Of a DNA stretch of 64,000 nucleotides, positions 17,661-36,394 are shown one piece after another. The stretch covers positions 1,612,001 to 1,676,000 of the forward strand of contig ML978129.1 of NCBI GenBank assembly GCA_010015805.1, written 5' to 3'. A program made the position numbers and the translations under genes. The notes under the pieces were generated by a model. The model was given only the letters and a program-made list of their open reading frames with translations, was not told where the DNA came from and did no database searches. The DNA is from Rhizodiscina lignyota (lineage: Eukaryota). Position 1 is the stretch's first letter; each line of letters starts with the position of its first letter.

Positions 17661-17949
17661 GAGGCTTGGAAACCTGGACTGTGTTTAAAACAGCAGTTCT
17701 GTTCACCTTATTCAAAAGATGATAACTCTTTCCCTCGATTCTTACTAGGCAATCCTTTTCGGCTCTACTTTAAAGACCACTGTTCGCCCTCTACTCCGCG
17801 GCATTTTTGAATGCCTTGACTGTTAAGCGATGTGGCGCCCAGCGTTGCATGCAGCGGCACAGCAACAGTTCGGGGCTTTGGCGGCCGTGTATTCCTGTCG
17901 GATTGTTTCCGATTCAAGCGGTCAACTTACCGTGGCAGGGCCTGTTAAA

Positions 17950-23916: not shown

Positions 23917-26499
23917 CTAGTTGACGGTCATTTTCGGTACGCGGCGGCTGGAGCTTGTTGGCCTGTCCTCATCATCGGACGTTGGCGCGCTCTCGACATG
24001 CGGCTGTGGATAGGCACCTGGGCTTGGACTGACTGAAGATTTCCCGGTACGAACCGATGTCGAACTTCTACCTGAACTGACCCCTTGAGAAGGGCCCAAA
24101 GATGCTCCTCGCTGGTGCCGAGGCGTCCGCGCGCGAAGATGAGACGTACCAGTCCCACCACTGCGAGCGAACCCCGCTGGAGGAGGGACAGCCATAGCAT
24201 TATGCGAAGTTGCACTCTTCGAGTTCAGCGTTTGTTGGCGTTGGCATGTCTGCAATCCCGCTTTCAGTTTCTCAAGCTTCGACTCCAATTCAGCACGCTT
24301 CACACCGACTTCGTCCGACTCAGAACCAAGAAGGTCTATAGTTTCATCGTCCATTTCGAGAACGACAGTTGAAGCGAAGATTCCCGTCAGGCCTTCGAGG
24401 AGAGCGTTCTCTATCAAGAGTGCCGCTACGTTGTCAATGAATGTGCGCAGTGACACCTGGAGAGGTCAATATGTCTGTCAATATGGTGTGACACGAAAAT
24501 CACCTACCTCATAATATTGCCACATGTTACACAGAACCCGGTCCAAAACGCTCGTCGGCTCCTCGTACCTGTATGTGTCGCACCACAGGGTCACCATTTT
24601 CTGCTCTCTTCGCCATTCGTATGAAGGATTGAACGTAATGGCCACTGAAGATTTATGAGGCTTCAGAATCTCTTCAAGTTTAACCAAAAGAGCGGCAAGC
24701 TTCCCTTGCATCGCTGGATTGACATGCTCCCTAAGGATCGCAGCTGCACATGCTCTATCCGCAATGCTGTTTATTACGTCGTCAAGGAATCCCCGGCATG
24801 CTTCCCAGACGATTTTCACAAAAGCTTCGGCAATTTGCTCCCAATGGACGGATTGCCTTCGGAATAGGTGGCCAATCGCGAGTGGATTATAGTCTCCAGG
24901 AAGCTCACAGCCACCAGTAGCTTCGATGGAAGCCTGCACCACCTTGTCCATTTCCTTGTCGCTTATTATTTTTCTTGACATTTGAAAAGTTACCTTTTTT
25001 TGATATCGGTCAATTGGCAAGAGCTTTCGATTGTTCAACTCACAAACGCCACTGTCGCATGTATGTCCGAATCGTTCCATGACGTTGACGAAGGCTAACT
25101 CCAGCTCCTTGATTTTTGCTCGCAGCCCTGGCCGTGTCACTTCAAGCGACGTAAAAATTGAATCTCGTTCTGTGTCTTGATCAAAGAATGGGTGATCGCA
25201 AGTTCCGCTTACACCGGCTCTGACAATAAGCGGAAAGCTTTCGGCGATCTGCATGAGGTACATTCTTTTTTCTGCCATGGCCGATCTAGCAGTGCCGAGA
25301 ATCTTGACTTCGGAATCTGATTTGATAATCTCGGCTTGAATATCCGCAATAACGCCACCCAGAGATTCACATATCTTCTTGTGGAGGATCTTTCGTAGTC
25401 GTTCCCGCAAACTAATGATCCCCACGTGCCCATGGGGAAGGTCAGACCAAGGAGCCTTGTCGAAGAATTTGTGCTCGATATGGTCGCGTTCTGTAGATGG
25501 GCAGTTGCGCGTCTGGCGTTGATTGTCAGTGACGTTCCTAGCTTCTGATTTACTACGCTCACATTATAGTCTCTGTTGCGCAACATATGCCACCCAAGAG
25601 TGAAAATGAGTGGAGCCTTTTGATTCTTGGCAAGAGCGAGGATTTCCTTCTGAGCGTCCGAGCCATCATACGTCAGATCCGGCTTCGTTATGACCCCAAG
25701 AGTTCGCTCGCCTTTCTCGTCTATCTCGCGAGCCCAGGTGAGGATAACTTGAGTCGCAGCGTCATTACTCGCGGGTATGACCGCTAGAATAATACTTCGC
25801 GAGTTCCGCATGTACGATTGCACGAGCTGGCTAACAGTCTGGATATCTTCCGCAGTTTGTCCTCCGGTTTGCGCATGAATGATACCTGGAAGGTCTACCA
25901 TGGAGAGCGTGGGCCCATCGGGACGGTATACAGTCAACCTAAGAACATCTCGAAAGAAGATTGCAGGCCCAGATTGGGAGGAGAGTGCCATTTGTTCTTT
26001 TGCCGAGTCAATGATTGAAGGCAGTTCTTCAAGATCCACTGAATCTTGCTTGAACTCGTCGAATCGTTCTTTGTCCGACACTGACCTATCATCGTGCGCA
26101 ATAATAGCAACTGAAGCCGACGGCATGTCCGATCTCCGAAGAATGACTTCCGTTGCGAACGTGGTGCAGAGAAGGTCCGCAGTTGGGAATTTGACTCCGG
26201 AAATGGCTTCGAGAACCGAGCTCTTGCCAGATGATTGGTCGCCGACCACAACAATCTGCGGTAACTCAATGTGATCACCCACACCTAGAAACCGAAGTTC
26301 ATCAATAAGGTCGAGTAGCTTGCCCTGCTCCTTGTCCGATAGTTGGTCCAATATGGTCACTCCCTCCACCTCCGGTTCCTCTGGTGCAAGAGGAGTTGAT
26401 GTCCCACGGCTCTACTCAACCATAGGTAAGTAAATCGAAGGAATAGCGCTAGCAAATATTACTCACCCCGCTAAGAGAGAAAGAATTCAGTCCGTGCAT
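23917..26499 (-). CDS. Mx-like dynamin-family GTPase A (GTPase-middle-GED, no PH domain, S/P/R-rich tail)
   Basis: LPQIVVVGDQSSGKSSVLEAIS, CTTFATE, DLPG, TKPD and GED FIDNVA. Introns at 26412..26466, 25513..25562 and about 24458..24508 give a continuous frame. Confidence 0.9.
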
Positions 26500-27200
26500 T
26501 ATTCTATCCACCATTGTAAGGAGTATTGGTACAGATATATCTGGACCGAAATGAAGGAAGTTTAGAGGATTTCGACTTTCTCAGAGAAATTTGAAGAATT
26601 CACACAGTAAATTTGTGTGGCAATTTGTTCCCAGACTGAAAAGTAAACTATTTCGTAGTACTTACCATCACACCGCCGTCTTTGCTGGCTTTATCAAGAC
26701 TTTCTCACCAGCTAGCCACTGCCCACAGTGACCACAAATCAGACCGCGTATGTTACGTGCAATCTTGAGCCATCCTCCATTCTCTAGCATATAGTGCTTC
26801 TAAAGCGTCTCGCGTTAGAGGTATTTCGAGAGACTTAGAAACATCTGCTAGAAGTTCAATGGACATCAGAATCTGGACGTCAGCCATGAACGTTGCTAGC
26901 GCTGTGGAAAATTCCAAGGAAAGGACAGTTCAAGATGGATGAGTAGACTTTTGTGAAACAATGTGTACTACAAATATTAGGTTTCAAAAGCAAGTATGGG
27001 TGCTCCATCCAATCGACTGTTGCCCAAAGTGTCTTATCTGCATCACTTGGAGCACGCAATGACAGATAAGTTAGTGACGCAATTCCAGACGCGGCGATGC
27101 CTCTTGATAAAGGATTGTTCGAGTCGCTTCAGGGATTTACATCTAAGTTTGTAAAATTTGCCCTCCACGCTGCTGGACGTGCTGTTCGTATGTCCAGTGA

Positions 27201-27343
27201 CATGCTCAACTGTTGCTGTGCCGCACAAGGGGTCGCGACTCCAACCAGGTCTTTGTGGCATGGCGTCAACGTCTGTTTCAGGAGTTAGGAATCAGCATCT
27301 CTCTCGAACATTGCAAGGAAGGAGATACGATGGAAAGCGATGC
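27201..27343. repeat. Conserved non-coding element upstream of dynamin A (copy 1)
   Basis: CTGTTGCTGTGCCGCACAAGGGGTCG at 27210-27235 is identical to 31172-31197. 27260-27281 matches 31225-31246 at 20/22 positions. Confidence 0.85.
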
Positions 27344-27898
27344 GACTTTAGATGAGAATGTGATACTTCTCCTAGATAGGCTATGTATCGCGGTTAGAGG
27401 AGTGCAGCGTGACACCCCTTATAAGCCATAATGATGAGGTGAGACAGTATTATGAATGGTGCTTCTGAATGGTGGAGAACAGCAAGAAGGTTTGGAAGCC
27501 AACCGCTGCCAGAAGCTCTGGGCTTAAACGGCAATTCGGCCCCCATATGAATTGTGCCACGCCAAAATTGATTTCATTGATCAATGTGATATCGTAATTC
27601 ATCAAATACACAATCTTGGCATATCTACCAAATGCACTGGATTTTTGAATTCCATCAGTCGACATGAACCGCCGCTTCAATGATTTACCCAAAGGTTTGG
27701 AGAGCGACCCATCAAAGACACGCAGCTCAACCACTCAGACATTTGGGCTTCATGAAGCCTGTTTCAGCTACGTAAGTTGCCAGCACCTAAAGAAATACAA
27801 AGAGACATAACCGGTCATGAGATCACAAGGAGATCCATCATCAAACCTCGCCACCTTTTTTCCTCTGTAGCGGACATTGGTTGCCTGCCTTCTAGGCC

Positions 27899-30513
27899 CT
27901 ACTTCTTGTGCAGAGTGAATGAAGGCGGACTCAAAAGTTCTTGCTGTTTCCCCTCCTGACTTCCTGTCGTAGATCCATACGAGGTCATTGACGATGAGGA
28001 AGACGTTGACTCCGGAGAACTGTCGTCAACGTTGTGTGCTGACACTACACTTACGGTACTTCGAGTGGGCGAAGAATCCTGTGGCCTCGCATGAGGTGTT
28101 CTGGCAGGCGTTTCCGGAGTAAAATCATCTCCAAAATGAAGGTTGTTTAGGCTTGAGTCAAGATCATCGATTCCGAGGTGATGTCTAATCTGCGCTGTAT
28201 CTGATGAGACATTACTCGGCGATCGCTCTCCTGGGCGGGTTCGGGCTGAACAAGTACTTCAGCTCGTCTGCATCAGAGTCAAGGAGTTCTCTGTACTCAC
28301 CAGATACTGGTCGGTGTTTCCAAGGTTTGAAGAGTTCCAAAGCTGCGTCAAGATCTTTGATCTCTGCTTCCAGTTCCGCGCGCTTCTTGACGGTGCTCTC
28401 TGCCTCGGAGACAATGCTTGCTACTGTCTCAGGATCCATAGGGTATACAGTCTCTGGAGTGAAGATCTCCGGTAGATCATTCAGCAATGTCTCGTTTATT
28501 ACGAGAAAAGCAACGTTGTCGACAAACTGCAGGATTACGTGCTGTGAATCGGTCAGCGGAACGCCCCTGACGGTCGAGATCTTTGGACTCACTTTATAGT
28601 ATTCAAGCATACAATCAATAATATCGATACGAGTCGTTAGTTCGACATCATATTCCTCTTTCATCCAGCCCAGCGACGACAGTTGTGCCGCATTCTCGGC
28701 CGCAGCAATGCGCTCCTTATTCTTCTCGAACGCGGCGCTCATGACTCTGCTTCGCCTCTCTCCCTGTTTCGTAGCGACGATTACATCAAAAAAGGGGCTG
28801 TAAGTTACCATATGTGCTTTCTCGAAGGGTGCAATAACGAGCTCGAAGGTTTTCCACATGGCGGGCTTTCTTCTGCGGAGTTTTTCATTGAGGAGATAGT
28901 CGCAAAGCGCATTGTTCAGCTCAGCATCTGCACCTGTGACGTCTTTGGCCAACAATCTGATCCAATCTTCGATAGTCTCAAAAACAAGCTCGAGGTGCTC
29001 TTTGGCCAGCCGCCTCCAAGGTTGGCTTTGGTGGCGGAAGAGACCTTGGATAACAGCAGGATTGATAGTACCGCTGGGTTCGTTTGCGTGACTTACGTCA
29101 ATGAATTTTCGAACAAGTTCCAGGAATTCTTCAGTGAAGATTGGTTGAGGCGTCGCATCGTCCCCAGAACGTGGGCCAGCCGTTGCAGGTCGAGAGTCGC
29201 AGATCTCCCACCGGTGGCCATGTTCATGCATTCGTCTTGAGAATTCGTTGTTCAATTTTCGGACAATTGCACTTATTTGCCGAGGGTCGACTTCTTCAAG
29301 CGATACAGGATACTTGTCTAGTTTGCAACTTCCGTCTATGAGCCTCTCAATAAGCCGCGAGAACTTGAAACTGAGGCCGATCAAGAATTCCTTGGGATCT
29401 TCTGGTCGTGGAGGCCCAAGATTGTCCTTCTCTGCCTGCTTTGCGTCACGGAGAGTCCGAACATCGTTCTTGACGCCATCATGCGCTTGCAGGATCTTTT
29501 GGTAGAGTTTGTAGCTAAGTCGTGATCGAAGGGCTGCAGCACCAACGTGCTCTTTTGGAATTGCCGCCCAATCACCATGGGAGAAGAACCGGTCTTCTTC
29601 TTTATCTCTCTCGGCGGCCGAGAGCTTCTCTTGCTGTTTATAGCTTAGTACGCGCTCCTCACTCAATTGTGGAATCGCTTACCCCAGAACCTCTATTCTT
29701 CAGCACATGCCATTCCTGTTTATATCGTGGATTCGTTCCCTTTGCGAAAGAGATATAAGTGTCTTTGCAAGCCTCGTCATTTGTTGCATCGGGTTTTGTG
29801 ATCACCCCAAACGTGCGACGACATTCTGGGTCAGCCCTTTCCGCAATCTCCAATGCCGCTTGACAGTAGCGCTCGTATGCCGCGGAGACGATTGTCATGA
29901 TGATGGCCTGAGGATTAGAGACATATTTCTTGACCAGGCTGTTCACAATTTCCTTGTCGTTTGACTCGATGTTGTCTGTTGATTGAATCAGGCCTGGAAG
30001 GTCTACGAGATCCAGTGGGGGAGTGTCTGGGCCAGAGATCTCCACATGAAGGGTATGGTCTGAAAAGATGGACATTTCAGGGGTGCGTTTCTCTTTGATG
30101 TACTGTTTTGCCTTCTCGATACATTCAGGAACTTGCTCAGGGGATGAGCAAGAGGCGCGGAATTTTTTCATGGCCTCAGCCACCTCTGGGGTGCTTTGTT
30201 CCCCAGGCACAATGGAGACGGACCCTCTCCAGGCTGGCTCGGTGCGCATAATCAGCTCTGTCGCGAAGGTTGTGCATGTTCCAGGCTTTGACGGGAAGCG
30301 AATCCGAGATATTGCATCCAGGACAGAGCTTTTACCAGATGACTGATCGCCAACGACAACCAGTTGGGGAAGGTCGATGTCGCGAAGCTTAAGCCCTTTA
30401 AGGGTCTTGATTGTGTCAAGAAGTTCTCGCTGCTCGTCGTTTTGGAGTTGCTGAAGTGCCTCCTGACTGGAAGTGTCAGCAACAGAAGCATTCTCTTTGT
30501 TATTGGCGGCCAT
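27899..30513 (-). CDS. Mx-like dynamin-family GTPase B (GTPase-middle-GED, Ser-rich tail)
   Basis: LPQLVVVGDQSSGKSSVLDAIS, CTTFATE, DLPG, TKPD, LKNR and GED FVDNVA. Introns near 29633-29681, 28543-28593 and 28201-28301; last exon inferred. Confidence 0.88.
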
Positions 30514-31162
30514 TATGTAGATTGACAATAAATGATTCGCTTCAGAATAAGGGAAAGATTAAAGGTTGACAGCTTTGAGGAAAGATGTTCGAAGAGATAG
30601 GGAGATGAAGTCAATATATCCTGTATATATTGTTCTGAAGTTTTCTTATCTGTGTACTTCTCTTCTGTTTTTATAACTTCAGATCCTCGAAGTAACTGCT
30701 TCGTTCCGAGGCTCGACATCCGGAGTCTAATCTTAGCTCCGCTTCGATGTGCGCCAGAATCTCTAACATGACCTGAGGTACATCAGGCGGCCCCATGGAT
30801 TGAAATGGTGGTCGCAAGGGGCATCATTTGGTCGTTGAGTGAACTTGATGTGAAGGATTCTGTTGGTCAATTGGTAAGACACTATCACGCGCGTTCTACA
30901 CGAATGGACGCGCGAAGACGAATGAGATACCAACATATCAACCATAAATGTGGTACCTAGGCGCCCGAGGCACTAAGCGCTTGATAAAAGTGTGTGGCGT
31001 GTATCGTCATGCGGCGATCTGCCACAAATGTGGAAACGGACCGAGGGCTTCGTGCTCAAGAACCCAGGACGTTGGGCTCACTGCTTCGCTGAATTGTATT
31101 GAGGCATTATTTTGGGTTGCCAGGAACCATACAGTTGGAACTTGATCGTGAGAATGTAGTGC

Positions 31163-31311
31163 CATGGCGAGCTGTTGCTGTGCCGCACAAGGGGTCGAGA
31201 CAGATGCCTCCGGGGCTTCGCGGGATGGCGTCGACATCTGTTTCAGCCTTTCCAAAGGCAAGGATGCCTCTTCATCTATTGCCAACGGGAAGAGATGTTT
31301 GGAAACGATGC
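31163..31311. repeat. Conserved non-coding element upstream of dynamin B (copy 2)
   Basis: Direct-repeat homologue of 27201..27343, same orientation relative to its dynamin gene. Confidence 0.85.
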
Positions 31312-31702
31312 TGAGTGGGAAGACTGTGGGGCGTTTGGAGTGGAAGACGATGAGTTGAGGTCGGAGCGATCCCGAAGTCGGAGAATGGCCCATGCCCGAT
31401 TCGGAATTCTGATGAACCTACAACAGCGATGTGAAGATTCCTCTATGCTGTGTGCAGAGCTACCTCCTTTTTAAAGAAGACAGGTCTCTTTTATCAGGGA
31501 AGGACACCCATTGCGACATCTAGCGCGGAAGCACGCAATTGTCCTTCAGACTTTGAGCTGACAAACAAACTTGTTTGCTGTTGAAGTTGAGACGTATTTT
31601 CCTATCTATAATCCTTTCGAACTCGTTCTAAAGAGACCCGTTGTAACTATTGAGCCTCCCTATTATACCATTAAGCTCCTATCGTTCCATTGCCGCACAA
31701 AT

Positions 31703-32716
31703 ATGGCCGTTAACGGGCAAGAGGAGGATTTTTGGTTATTCGGGTACGGGTATGTACAGATGTACCAATTTGCAGTTACCGAATCTCTTCGTACTAAGCA
31801 TGTTTCAGGTCACTGATATGGAAGCCCCCTCCACACTTTGGTTTGTCTATGTCTTATTGATTTTACTGCTATATGTTCACACTTCCAGATATTCGCCTAC
31901 CGGGTTACATAGAAGGATACGTGCGCCGATTCTGGCAGGTAAGCACCCGCTGCCGTATCGACGAATGATGACCGACGCTCTGTTCTAGGCTAGGTTAGAG
32001 ATATCTCATGATATCGAGTTCCTTTTTGACTAACTACCGGATAGTGAGGATCATCGCGGTACTCCCGAAGGCATGCTACTAACTCCCACATAACTTTGAC
32101 ATGACTGATGGACATGAATTGCAGCTCCTGGACGTGTCGTCACGCTCATCGATCTCGAACACTGGAGAACTCTTACAGATCACGTATGTTAAACTCTGGC
32201 TCATCCTCATATTCCCTCTGGGCTCAACTTTCTCAGCATGTCTCAGCACCAGAGCGAGTATGGGGTGCAGCCTACCACATCCCGCCTGAGCACGTGTCGG
32301 AGGTGCGAGACTACCTCGACATCCGGGAGATCAACGGCTACAGCATTCAATACACGCCATTTCACCGCTCGGACTTAACACACGAGACTCTGAACTGTCT
32401 GGTCTACATCGGACTTCCATCAAACCCACAGTTCCTCGGCCCTCAGGATCCGGATGCATTGGCACGGCACATTCTCAAGAGCAAGGGCCCAAGCGGAGAG
32501 AACAAGGAATATCTCTACATGCTTGAGGAAGCACTTGAGGGACTCAGCAGCGAGAGTGGTGATGAGCACATCAGTGATTTGGCGAGGAGGTGTAAGGCGC
32601 TGGAGACAAAGGGATATGCTGGACCCGGACACGCTGACGGGGATCAGCCATCGCACAGTGAGCACTTGCACAAGGTTGGGAGCACAGAAGAGCAAGAAGA
32701 AGTAGAAAAGGTGTGA
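31703..32716 (+). CDS. ChaC-family glutathione-specific gamma-glutamylcyclotransferase (Gcg1-like)
   Basis: Spliced product [64 protein letters not shown]. Seven exons, including a 5-nt microexon. Confidence 0.92.
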
Positions 32717-32885
32717 AGCCGACTCCTATTATCATCGCATGATTTCATGTAAGCTCAAGGAGACTGTCATAGAGGCATAGACCTTAGAGAATTCCTGCCG
32801 TCGTTTCTTCGACTGTCTGTCCTCATTGTGTCTAGACAAACTTTTGCGCACCGTATTGCGAAGGTGGAGCAACCGTGTTGAACTT

Positions 32886-33921
32886 CTACAAAAACTTGCT
32901 GGCCAGGCTCATGAGGCCGCCGCCGCCGCTTCCGCCCATCTCAGACTTCATGTACCTGTATGTATTATCAGTGTTCTATTTGAGTTCGCATATCATGTTT
33001 CACTCACATCTTCAGCGCCATCTGCGCAGCGGAAGAAACAGCATCCTGCTTGCTGCCCATCGCATTGCCCTGGCTGCTCTGCTGATCGAACAGTTTCGCC
33101 GCCTGGCCCATCGCCATGCCGACGAATGCATTCTGGCCTCCTCCGGAGCCTCCACCAGAACCACCCGTAAACATCTTCAACGCTTGCATAGCAGCGGCAG
33201 AGCCCATACTTCCACTGCTTGCGCTACCACCGCCACCGCCGCCACCGCCATAGAACTGCTGATGAGCTTGCACGGCGCCTTGCTCGTCCACGTCCTCGTT
33301 CTGGAGCTGACTCTTCTTGCCGCCGAGCATACCGAGCACGCTGCTGAACATGCTCCTGTCCCCTGAATCCCCGGAATGCTGCTGCGCATGCGACAAGGCC
33401 GAGGACATGTCGTTATCGTCATTGGACCCTGCTCCGCCGCCACCATAGGATGTCCCAGTGGAAGACTGTTGACCATATGACTGATCGCCGTAGCCACCTC
33501 CTTGACGACGATTTTCGCTGCTGCCGTAGTCTCCACCTCCCGAGCCACCATACGAGTCAGACTGGTTGTTGTATTCCCCTCCAGCCCCGTGACGACGGCC
33601 TTCACTGCCACCGCTATCTCCGCCGTATCCTCCACCTTGGCGGCCTTCGCTATAACCTCCGCTGTCCCCACCATATCTACCTCCGCTTTGGCCCTCCCCT
33701 CCGTAGTTTCCACCACCCTGGCCGCCGCCGTACTCATTTCCTCCCTGTCGGCCGCCATATCCACCGGAATCTCCATACGATCCCTGGCCTCCATCATTGC
33801 CACCATATCCTTCTCCTTGACCTTGACCTCCACGCTGTTGTCTACCGCCATATTCCCCGGATTCACCACCATAGCTGCCTCCTCCACGGCCGCCTTGGTT
33901 GTAGTCGTCGTTGTAGGACAT
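32886..33921 (-). CDS. Glycine-rich conserved fungal protein (resembles 'beta-flanking protein' family)
   Basis: Gly/Tyr/Ser-rich N-terminus, then AHQQFYG, SMGSAAAMQALKMF and GMAMGQAAKLFD. One intron gives the C-terminus YMKSEMGGSGGGGLMSLASKFL. Confidence 0.8.
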
Positions 33922-34417
33922 TTTCAGTGCGTATCCTTTTGGTCTGACGCTGAAGCGTTTGGGCTGGGATATTGCCTGATGGAACATTGTGAGATTGTGC
34001 TTTCTGAGTTTTCAGAAGTAATACAGAGTTTCTGGAACGGGGACAGAGGTACGAGGAAGAAGCTCAGCAAGGAAGCATTTGAAAGAAATTCGAGGCAAAT
34101 AATGAGAGAAGCCTGTGAGCTTGAGGCACACAACTGTGACAATTAGCAAATATACGTACCTGTGAAACCGCCGGATTGCAAGCGCTGAGCTCTTGACGCT
34201 ACTCAGTACTTCAATGAGGTTGGTGAAGGTCGAGAGTGGGTGAGAGCTGGAATTCAACAAAATCGAAGACAGTAGCAGAGCTGAGGATTTAAGTCTCCCA
34301 GAATGTCGTCAATTAGAGCTTGGTTCCAAGTTCTTCGTGGTTTGATTTTCAGCTGTGATGTGCCTGATCGAATGGAGGGATTGGGTGGATCGGTGACCCC
34401 GCGATGACGTGGGCTGT

Positions 34418-34533
34418 TTGACGCGCATGAAAAGGTGATGTGGGGCAGGGAGCCAACGCGTGTCGTGGTGTGCGAGTCAAGTAGCAAGGCAGAGGCGCAC
34501 AACATGAACGTGGCTGGCTGGCGTAATTGTGGA
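34418..34533. repeat. Diverged direct repeat, copy 1
   Basis: Blocks TTGACGCGCATGA, GTGATGTGGGG, GCGAGTCAAGTAGCAAG, AACGTGGCTGGC and ATTGTGGA recur in the same order at 36395..36476. Confidence 0.85.
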
Positions 34534-35214
34534 ACGTGACTGAGATTACTCCTTTACCTCTTATTGCAATCTACATCCTCTCCTGATAGACGACCTCTGA
34601 AGTAAAAGTCCCTTCTCTCTGGAAGACAAATCTGACAACAGAATGAATCTATACTAGCTATTTTATGCTATGATTCCTATTATCTGGGAGGCATATAGAA
34701 CGCTGTACGTTTCTCCTGAGACTGCCTCTCAACAGAGGCCTTTCACAGGCACCCGACTTTTGGGTATTGCGGCCTCATTATAACAGTTTTTTTCTTCCGA
34801 GATCACTTTTCCGTGAGGACTTGAATGTCGCACCTCACTATCCATCACTTTGGATGCCTTCCCATACAGGCGCGCCTCATTTTGAGGACTTCGCCGCTTT
34901 GGATGATCTTCCCATGAAGGCTTGCTCTCTATGGAATTAGAGAGAGGCGACCTGAACTTAAGCTTTGGTGGATCGCAGGATGTGATCACCTTGATGGCCT
35001 GAGGAATGAAACGAATGAGGGCGGAACAAGAGCAAGGAGGAGGGTGTCTAAGTTGATGATGGGCAACTCACATGCACTATGTTCGATGACTGTATCCTTC
35101 CACGAGAGACGGCTAGAGGCTGGAGAAGCTGTCTCTTGCATACGGACAAGCTTCTGAGGCAGACAGGAGAAGTATCACCAAGGAGGTCAAGATAGGTGGG
35201 AGGAGTGTCCGGGA

Positions 35215-35538
35215 ATGGTCGAACGGCAGCAAGCGATTGAAAATCTGCCGGAGAATCTTGCTAGGCTGAGAGTGGAGCTAAAGAGCTGGCGGCAGGACGG
35301 AGGAGTGGCGCCCATTCCTACGCCTTTAGGATTAGATGGGACAATCCTATTGGGTGCACGTGTGCGATGGGATGAAAACACTGGACTTTTCATTCATGGA
35401 GTGCCGACAAGGAGGTACGGACTCAAAGGACCAGTGCAAAGGATGGATATGGAAATTGATTTGGCAGAACATGAGGTGTCCATTGACGAGCTGCAAGACT
35501 GGGTCAAGACAAATATCATACACGCACATAGGACATAG
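35215..35538 (+). pseudogene. Orphan 107-aa ORF, possibly the 3' remnant of a decayed gene
   Basis: Protein-like composition. The same frame stays open upstream to about 34920 except for one TGA. No family recognised. Confidence 0.25.
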
Positions 35539-36394
35539 CCAGTAATGATCAGTCATAGAAATAGTTGCAATGATAAAGTTTTTAGGACTATTGAAAACGA
35601 TGATCGATTTGATCGCTTGTATGAGCACCCGGAAAGGGCATCGGATGAGTCAAGTAGTAAAACCAACCCAACACTACTGCCACGAATGCTTTGGGCACGA
35701 CGTACGAGTGAATTCCGCTGATGTTTATATTAATGCTCGTCAAACACCCGAGATTTAGCATTTAAGGCTCCTGAATTAATAGAATTGATGCTGTATATTC
35801 CAGCGGGAATAGGTATCTGATAGTCGGAGATAGTGGTAGTCATGTATGTTACCCTACTACCCGAGAATGTTACCGACAAGCCATTCGGGAAGTAGTGATA
35901 TTTTCCTAGGTCCGTGTACGCCGTATGAATAGATCCCCAAGGTCTACTGGTCTTACTGGATAACGATGAGGGTGCCGTACAGTGGATCGGTGTCGATCGC
36001 ACATTTATCTCGCTTATACCGAATCATTCTCAAACATTCAATGTCGGTATCCACGAATTTAACAGTATTAACGTATTCGTTGCATATCGACGATTCGCCT
36101 TTTACAGAGACTACGTCTAAGCGGCCGATGTAGCGTCTCTATTAGTTCTTCAAATGATTGATCGAGTAATATCAAAATTCCTCACGAGGCCGGGCACTAC
36201 GGCAAACCTACGCGATTTCACGGTTCGACAGGCAAAGCAAATCGGCTTCGGACAACCGGAGCTCGTAATTAATTATATTGATGCTGTTGAACGTACACGA
36301 ATTAGTGTTTGAAGCTTCTAACTTCAACGAATTGATGCTCGATTTCACGGCGTCCAAAAAATCGCGTCCGGAAAGAACCATGCGAAAGGTTTGC

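Follow-up and report, generated by a model that had tools for sequence, protein, structure and literature searches.

A short conserved island upstream of two Mx-like dynamin genes in the fungus Rhizodiscina lignyota and its possible role as a cis-regulatory module

The tandem genes MX1 and MX2 of mammals are co-induced via shared promoter elements, the interferon-stimulated response elements. In yeast the pentamer AGGGG is the consensus of the Msn2/Msn4 stress response element (STRE), and fungi also have conserved-peptide upstream open reading frames (uORFs) and small open reading frame (ORF) genes, for example the arginine attenuator peptide of arg-2/CPA1. Here we describe, in a 64,000-nucleotide stretch of contig ML978129.1 (GCA_010015805.1, positions 1,612,001 to 1,676,000; hereafter the window) of Rhizodiscina lignyota, a dothideomycete of the order Aulographales, a short island of conserved sequence that stands upstream of each of two neighbouring genes for Mx-like dynamin-family GTPases, here called dyn1 and dyn2, and we weigh (i) a role as a cis-regulatory module of the gene pair, (ii) a coding role, (iii) a role as a transcribed element, and (iv) an origin as a relic or a repeat.

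Fungal Mx-like genes (MxF) were recognised only recently. They are presented in PMC11789081 as uncharacterised, with a highly variable copy number and a fast turnover by gain and loss of the kind typical of defence genes.

The island and its two copies

The complete upstream regions of dyn1 and dyn2 were compared by BLASTN and gave a single significant match (E 1.6e-16), which defines the two homologous copies of the island (Table 1). The alignment comprises 89 columns at 78.7% identity with one 3-nt indel, and the secure length of the island is 86-89 bp. Both copies have the identical orientation and lie at near-equal distances from the dynamin start codons (697 vs 645 bp), and a dynamin gene is the sole neighbour that they have in common. 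Their GC content exceeds that of the adjacent DNA, at 0.558 for copy 1 (flanks 0.43-0.47) and 0.629 for copy 2 (flanks 0.46-0.47).

A first-pass annotation of the window, made from its letters and ORFs, had described the common element as ~145 bp long, with a perfect 26-bp core and two further blocks. The element is real, but only the 86-89 bp named above are secure, the rest being a weaker collinear extension that was aligned with MAFFT. The core, CTGTTGCTGTGCCGCACAAGGGGTCG, was found at exactly two places in the window when up to 3 mismatches were allowed, whereas 0/100 dinucleotide-preserving shuffles contained a match, and its distances to the start codons had been given correctly (27210-26499 = 711, 31172-30513 = 659). 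The other two blocks are likewise present. The second matches at 20/22 positions (27260-27281 vs 31225-31246), and the third (copy 1 ~27321-27343, copy 2 31288-31311) is collinear but not significant alone by BLASTN. The second block is separated from the CGATGC anchor of the third by 57 nt in copy 1 and by 3 nt more, 60 nt, in copy 2.

Outside the island no other alignable DNA was detected between the two upstream regions when these were searched whole by BLASTN, as the first-pass annotation had judged by eye, and this includes the 650-700 bp that separate the island from the start codon. Shared k-mers outside the island were not enriched over shuffled sequences either (8-mers 58 vs 48.9 +/- 8.8, 9-mers 14 vs 12.2, 10-mers 1 vs 3.3).

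The number of copies in the genome was determined in the contigs of one public run (15,746 contigs, 34.2 Mb, read whole), which is probably the source assembly, using positions 27150-27400 as query at 80% likeness; copies lacking a nearly exact stretch of ~30 nt could escape this search. One of the 15,746 contigs matched, at two places 3962 nt apart, namely copy 1 and the 30-nt core of copy 2, and the recovery of the latter served as a positive control. The genome-wide check thus returned two copies only, both at this locus. It is nearly excluded on this evidence that the island is a dispersed repeat (a miniature inverted-repeat transposable element, a fragment of a solo long terminal repeat or a satellite) that came to lie near both genes by chance. 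What such a repeat has in its favour is the existence of two copies and a site on the minus strand at 17854-17870 where 17 nt agree exactly with the left half of the core (AACTGTTGCTGTGCCGC, BLAST E 0.002). A PRKCSH-domain gene and a P450 gene border the 1.6-kb stretch around this site, in which no gene has Pfam support; the flanks of the site are unrelated to the island, and since the sequence is CTG/CAG-rich a chance match is plausible. In 24000-36000, 20 inverted-repeat pairs were listed, and no pair flanks the element as terminal inverted repeats would; the two edges of the island (AGTG.. and ..TTTCAG) show no complementarity, and no target-site duplications were seen at them. A 22-nt piece of the core had 0 exact matches in metagenome contigs, viral contigs and prokaryote genomes.

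The first-pass annotation had suggested looking for further copies before other dynamin genes. None was found upstream of fungal dynamin relatives at 78 loci from JGI metagenomes (513,796 nt), which at 38-45% identity are distant and not orthologues and hence provide a weak test (blastn-short best E 0.06; tblastn in four frames best E 0.10 and 0.21; motif counts at chance level). A 13-nt match in matching orientation, 117-129 nt before the gene ATG at one of these loci (L075), was dismissed as chance (E ~0.9).

Table 1. Coordinates of the island, its parts, the candidate reading frames and the flanking genes in the window.
Feature	Position	Strand	Description and evidence
Secure island, copy 1	27196..27281		697 bp upstream of dyn1 start; repeat families D4, D7; BLASTN
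Secure island, copy 2	31158..31246		645 bp upstream of dyn2 start, 458 bp before ChaC-like start; BLASTN
Invariant 26-bp core, copy 1	27210..27235		palindrome TGTGC-c-GCACA 27217-27227, AAGGGG; 2 matches, 0 expected
Invariant 26-bp core, copy 2	31172..31197		palindrome 31179-31189; 2 matches, 0 expected
Weak collinear extension, copy 1	27282..27343		ends in third block ...GGAAAGCGATGC; MAFFT alignment; BLASTN not significant
Weak collinear extension, copy 2	31247..31311		ends ...GGAAACGATGC; MAFFT alignment
Candidate small ORF, copy 1	27155..27355	+	stop to stop, 66 codons; ..V.VAVPHKGSR.LQPGLCGMASTSVS...GR..KRCDFR (stop)
Candidate small ORF, copy 2	31093..31314	+	stop to stop, 73 codons; same frame, ends ..KRC (stop)
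dyn1, dynamin-family (Mx-like) GTPase gene	23917..26499	-	Pfam Dynamin_N 1.6e-33, Dynamin_M 6.1e-14
dyn2, dynamin-family (Mx-like) GTPase gene	28212..30513	-	Pfam Dynamin_N and Dynamin_M; identity to NA57DRAFT_78531
ChaC-like gene, divergent from dyn2	31704..32716	+	Pfam ChaC 5.1e-28; ATG read from sequence

Age of the island and a candidate regulatory module

The island is far more alike between the two loci than the genes it precedes. The dyn1 and dyn2 proteins are identical at 38% of positions in the G domain (99/260) and at 24% in the middle domain (72/297), and where their residues are identical the codons differ in 107/167 cases, which is near synonymous saturation. The corresponding count for the best reading frame of the island is 6/19 (Fisher p = 0.011), and its 86 aligned bases differ at 16 positions (7 transitions, 9 transversions). 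Neutral DNA as old as the dyn1/dyn2 split should be unalignable. Since the genes are deeply diverged and their synonymous sites nearly saturated, the island, by this comparison, is either under constraint or of later origin than the genes, in the sense of having been homogenised more recently, and in either case is tied to the Mx-like pair. The earlier argument from conservation to selection therefore stands in part: an island so much more similar than its surroundings, and not a repeat, fits constraint, but later copying would also produce it.

Such later copying would make the island a functionless relic, in which ~90-150 bp were copied from one upstream region to the other long after the duplication, by ectopic conversion or templated repair across 4 kb, and have drifted since. 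The silent-site-like divergence of the island, which is below that of the genes as if the island were younger, and its absence from the 78 other dynamin loci agree with this history. We nevertheless consider it quite unlikely, for the matching orientation and distance would then be a coincidence (rough estimate ~0.05), conversion requires flanking homology and none was found, and under even drift, with 16 mismatches over 86 columns (81% identity), a perfect run of at least 26 bp would arise with P = 0.027. The balance of transitions and transversions likewise bears no sign of repeat-induced point mutation.

We tentatively favour, at somewhat less than an even chance, the interpretation that the island is a retained cis-regulatory module which co-controls the dyn1/dyn2 pair, and 'enhancer' remains the most economical term for what it may be. 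According to this proposal an ancestral Mx-like dynamin gene would have been duplicated in tandem together with the island, an upstream activating sequence that was inherited along with it, and selection would have retained the island before both gene copies. Duplication together with the gene is preferred over independent insertion because orientation is identical in the two copies and the distance to the start codon almost so, as expected if the island travelled with its gene. One DNA-binding factor, or a few, would dock on the invariant 26 bp of the core, which comprise the TGTGC-c-GCACA palindrome and AAGGGG, and the adjacent, less strictly conserved 60 bp would provide auxiliary sites. 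With one module placed alike in distance and orientation before both dynamin genes, these would be switched on together. The selection, the DNA-level function, the co-regulation and the factor identity that this proposal invokes are all putative.

Several observations are in line with a regulatory module. Copy 2 lies midway in the divergent intergenic region between dyn2 and a ChaC-like gene, a place that suits an upstream activating sequence and leaves little room for an additional gene. The island is GC-rich within AT-richer intergenic DNA, and tests for coding were at best marginal. Regulation is considered the most likely explanation for the combination of a perfect core containing a palindrome, a divergent intergenic position and a codon usage of the non-coding type. 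Constraint on the core at the nucleotide level is further pointed to by a perfect run that exceeds what the overall divergence predicts, and by the fact that the core carries no synonymous-type change, while 6/11 other conserved codons of the best frame carry one.

The first-pass annotation had also drawn attention to the STRE consensus in the core. AAGGGG is indeed located within the core of both copies, the pentamer AGGGG starting at 27228 and 31190, but this says little because AGGGG/CCCCT occurs 79 times in the window, or once per 810 bp. Nor does the pentamer cluster above background, as it was counted 3 times in 1712 bp and 2 times in 1190 bp (expected ~2.1 and 1.5). Inspection by eye for several transcription factor consensus sequences, snoRNA-like boxes and terminal inverted repeats revealed nothing convincing. 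A 10-mer of the core, TGCCGCACAA, occurs again at 31691-31700, 4-13 nt before the ATG of the ChaC-like gene at 31704, at chance level (blastn E ~3).

Other observations weigh against a regulatory module. At ~80% identity 86 bp is long for fungal transcription factor sites under saturation, and islands of this size are often transcribed elements. The differences between the copies are codon-like, with 8/10 in one phase within 27240-27281 (p = 0.010) and with 7 vs 6 synonymous and non-synonymous changes, an open frame and 3-nt indels, all of which are taken up in the following section. The two upstream regions have no further short motifs in common, and the absence of the island from the 78 distant dynamin loci means that it is not a family-wide promoter element.

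Reading frames and transcripts over the island

Taken over all 16 differences, the bias towards one phase is not significant (9/16, p = 0.15), and the favoured wobble phase is common to two frames, one on the plus and one on the minus strand. The plus-strand frame was the best of the six over the 86 aligned bases, with 7 synonymous and 6 non-synonymous codon changes. A permutation test on the best of six frames gave p = 0.065 for the most silent changes and p = 0.040 for the fewest replacements, which makes the plus-frame coding signal marginal, that is, suggestive and not decisive.

The frame reads V..VAVPHKGSR.[L/M][Q/P]PGL[C/R]GMASTSVS and runs through the third block (..GR..KRC), with a stop 3 codons (copy 1) and 0 codons (copy 2) after the common KRC. 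Each copy could on this basis belong to a small unannotated plus-strand ORF that is divergent from its dynamin gene, either at its full stop-to-stop extent (Table 1) or in a short ATG form, and the duplicated unit would then be an Mx-like GTPase gene plus a small divergent gene with a bidirectional promoter. We regard this as a serious though somewhat unlikely alternative. It explains the phase pattern, the open frame of 66 and 73 codons, and why the indel of the secure part, like the change in spacing to the third-block anchor, amounts to 3 nt, so that the plus frame is preserved. Silent changes are found at conserved R, P, G, G, S and T residues, an AG stands in both copies where conservation begins on the left, as it would at a 3' splice site, and an in-frame ATG is conserved (27260-27262 and 31225-31227), with a G at -3 and GC after it, from which ORFs of 31 and 29 residues would start.

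The best-conserved part precedes this ATG, and in copy 1 no ATG lies before that part; 11 and 15 models that combine an ATG with an intron were found for the two copies, none of them shared. A similarity 60-90 nt upstream ('D.GL..SL') was dropped, as it joins different frames in the two copies. The codon usage of the plus frame resembles that of intergenic DNA (log-odds -6.8 in copy 1 and -5.6 in copy 2, compared with -8.1, sd 7.6, for intergenic DNA and with +7.6, sd 4.8, for the window's true exons), and codon usage is non-coding-like in all six frames. No homologue of the plus frame was obtained by a word-indexed search of public proteins of 40-2000 residues ('near' and 'longer' lengths), no match to six candidate peptides by Pfam and no usable match to the candidate peptides in the ESM Atlas, and in an hmmsearch with a plus-frame profile against six-frame ORFs of the 78 dynamin loci the next match after the two ORFs of the window had E 0.29. 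Coding constraint alone also fails to explain the core, since there is no silent change over its ~8 plus-frame codons. An intermediate arrangement, in which the Mx-like GTPase gene is accompanied by a divergent micropeptide of ~30-70 residues (..VAVPHKGSR..PGL.GMASTSVS..KRC) whose DNA doubles as the control element, would accommodate this last point and appears unlikely to us.

The micropeptide of the first-pass annotation had been placed on the opposite, minus strand. A coding interpretation survives, with evidence that is marginal, but its better frame is on the plus strand. In the minus frame (ETDVDA[M/I]P..PG..DPLCGTAT) two synonymous changes and a stop in copy 1 only had been reported, where in fact there are 5 in a 14-codon stretch, and an in-frame TGA precedes this stretch by a few codons in both copies. 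Of the codon changes in the minus frame over the 86 aligned bases, 5 are silent and 8 are replacements; copy 2 lacks an ATG in this frame before the conserved part, and a profile of the minus-frame peptide (stops as X) had 0 matches at E <=0.001 among 1.84 billion proteins.

More broadly the island could be transcribed on the minus strand, that of the dynamin genes, as an exon of the 5' untranslated region (5'UTR), as a uORF or as a structured or promoter-associated RNA. The island's constant orientation with respect to the two genes, the silent changes of the minus frame and the conservation on that strand of CTGAAACAG, which is similar to a 3' splice site, would agree with such an element, which we nonetheless judge distinctly improbable. 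A 5'UTR exon and a structured RNA had both been put forward, and neither gained support. On the strand of the dynamin genes no GT donor is conserved after ..CACT at the downstream edge, and TATA-like runs read from the sequence ~100-115 bp before the dyn2 ATG suggest that the leader of dyn2 is short. Folding of the two copies on either strand at two lengths gave eight z-scores, namely +2.16, -1.05, +0.31, -1.15, +1.22, -1.47, +0.52 and -0.65, and no fold was shared, as the structures differ between the copies; two sequences give little power for detecting covariation. A search with Rfam 15 over 26400-31800 on both strands gave 0 matches at E <=1.

The flanking genes and comparison with known systems

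The first exon of dyn2 (278-aa query) has 100% identity to the start of the public 733-aa Rhizodiscina lignyota protein NA57DRAFT_78531, which begins with MAANNKE at the dyn2 start codon (30511-30513). For dyn1 a tiny first exon (ATG 26497-26499) followed by an intron was read from the sequence, and its boundary at 23917 is approximate. Both genes encode the G domain and the middle domain of the dynamin family. For dyn2, comparison with solved structures gave higher scores for the interferon-induced Mx2 (106 bits) and Mx1 (105) than for Drp1 (72) and Vps1 (67), and several of the dynamin homologues carry the name 'Mx' in their source records. Because of these top structure matches and names, dyn1 and dyn2 look like fungal Mx-like 'MxF' proteins.

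In a G-domain tree of 16 sequences both dyn1 and dyn2 were on long branches and their placement was not resolved. A clade of the two was not rejected (p-AU 0.254), and the pair may therefore stem from an old lineage-specific tandem duplication with rapid divergence. The two branches measure ~1.7 and 1.2 changes per column, compared with a median of 0.39, and such long branches would fit fast-evolving, defence-like relatives of Mx.

Copy 1 is located between the start of dyn1 and the stop of dyn2. Copy 2 is located in the intergenic region of dyn2 and the ChaC-like gene, which measures 1190 bp. No relic of a ChaC gene, which would imply a larger duplicated unit, was found beside copy 1, and a duplicated unit including ChaC was rejected on these grounds. 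The ChaC-like gene is adjoined by an ORF on the minus strand with a DUF7721 domain (E 1e-33; 33004-34011), the DNA of which is rich in short direct repeats (families D1, D3, D6, D8, D9 and D11; 33130-33900) and suggests a repetitive low-complexity protein, possibly rich in Gly, Ser and Tyr.

A second dynamin gene was present within the fetched flanks at 2/78 of the metagenome loci. At L049 (48-4795) the genes are in tandem, their G domains separated by 3971 nt, compared with 4108 nt for dyn1/dyn2, whereas at L050 (2670-4789) the pair is head-to-head, ~550 nt apart. Pairing may be recurrent among Mx-like genes. Both loci differ from the one described here in having nothing like the island in the data, which do not extend to the region upstream of the first L049 gene.

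As the island stands before two long-diverged paralogues, it offers a small and concrete target for deletion, for reporter fusion and as a bait for factors. If it is regulatory, it would be a first handle on the regulation of fungal Mx-like genes; if it is part of a small ORF, an unannotated partner gene would be added to the family; and if it is a relic, it would document an ordinary patchy copy event. The present weight of the finding is modest because it rests on two copies in one genome.

Compared with the known systems, the plus frame of the island is similar to uORFs of the arginine attenuator type in being a short frame that is conserved between copies, has silent changes at conserved residues and lies near a regulated gene. 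It differs in that its strand is opposite to that of the dynamin genes, so that it cannot be their uORF, in that the frame lies 390 bp before the ChaC-like start in copy 2 and has no downstream gene on its strand in copy 1, and in its non-coding-like codon usage and the lack of any homologue found. The likeness to STRE consists in the pentamer AGGGG inside the invariant core of both copies; the difference is that there is one pentamer per island and that the conserved block, at 26-86 bp, is far longer than a pentamer.

The comparison with mammalian MX1/MX2 concerns the arrangement of the genes. The sequences are unrelated, the island is situated ~650-800 bp upstream and is not promoter-proximal, co-induction of dyn1 and dyn2 is putative, and fungi are not known to have an interferon system. 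What the two loci have in common is that neighbouring Mx-type paralogues each carry the same short upstream element.

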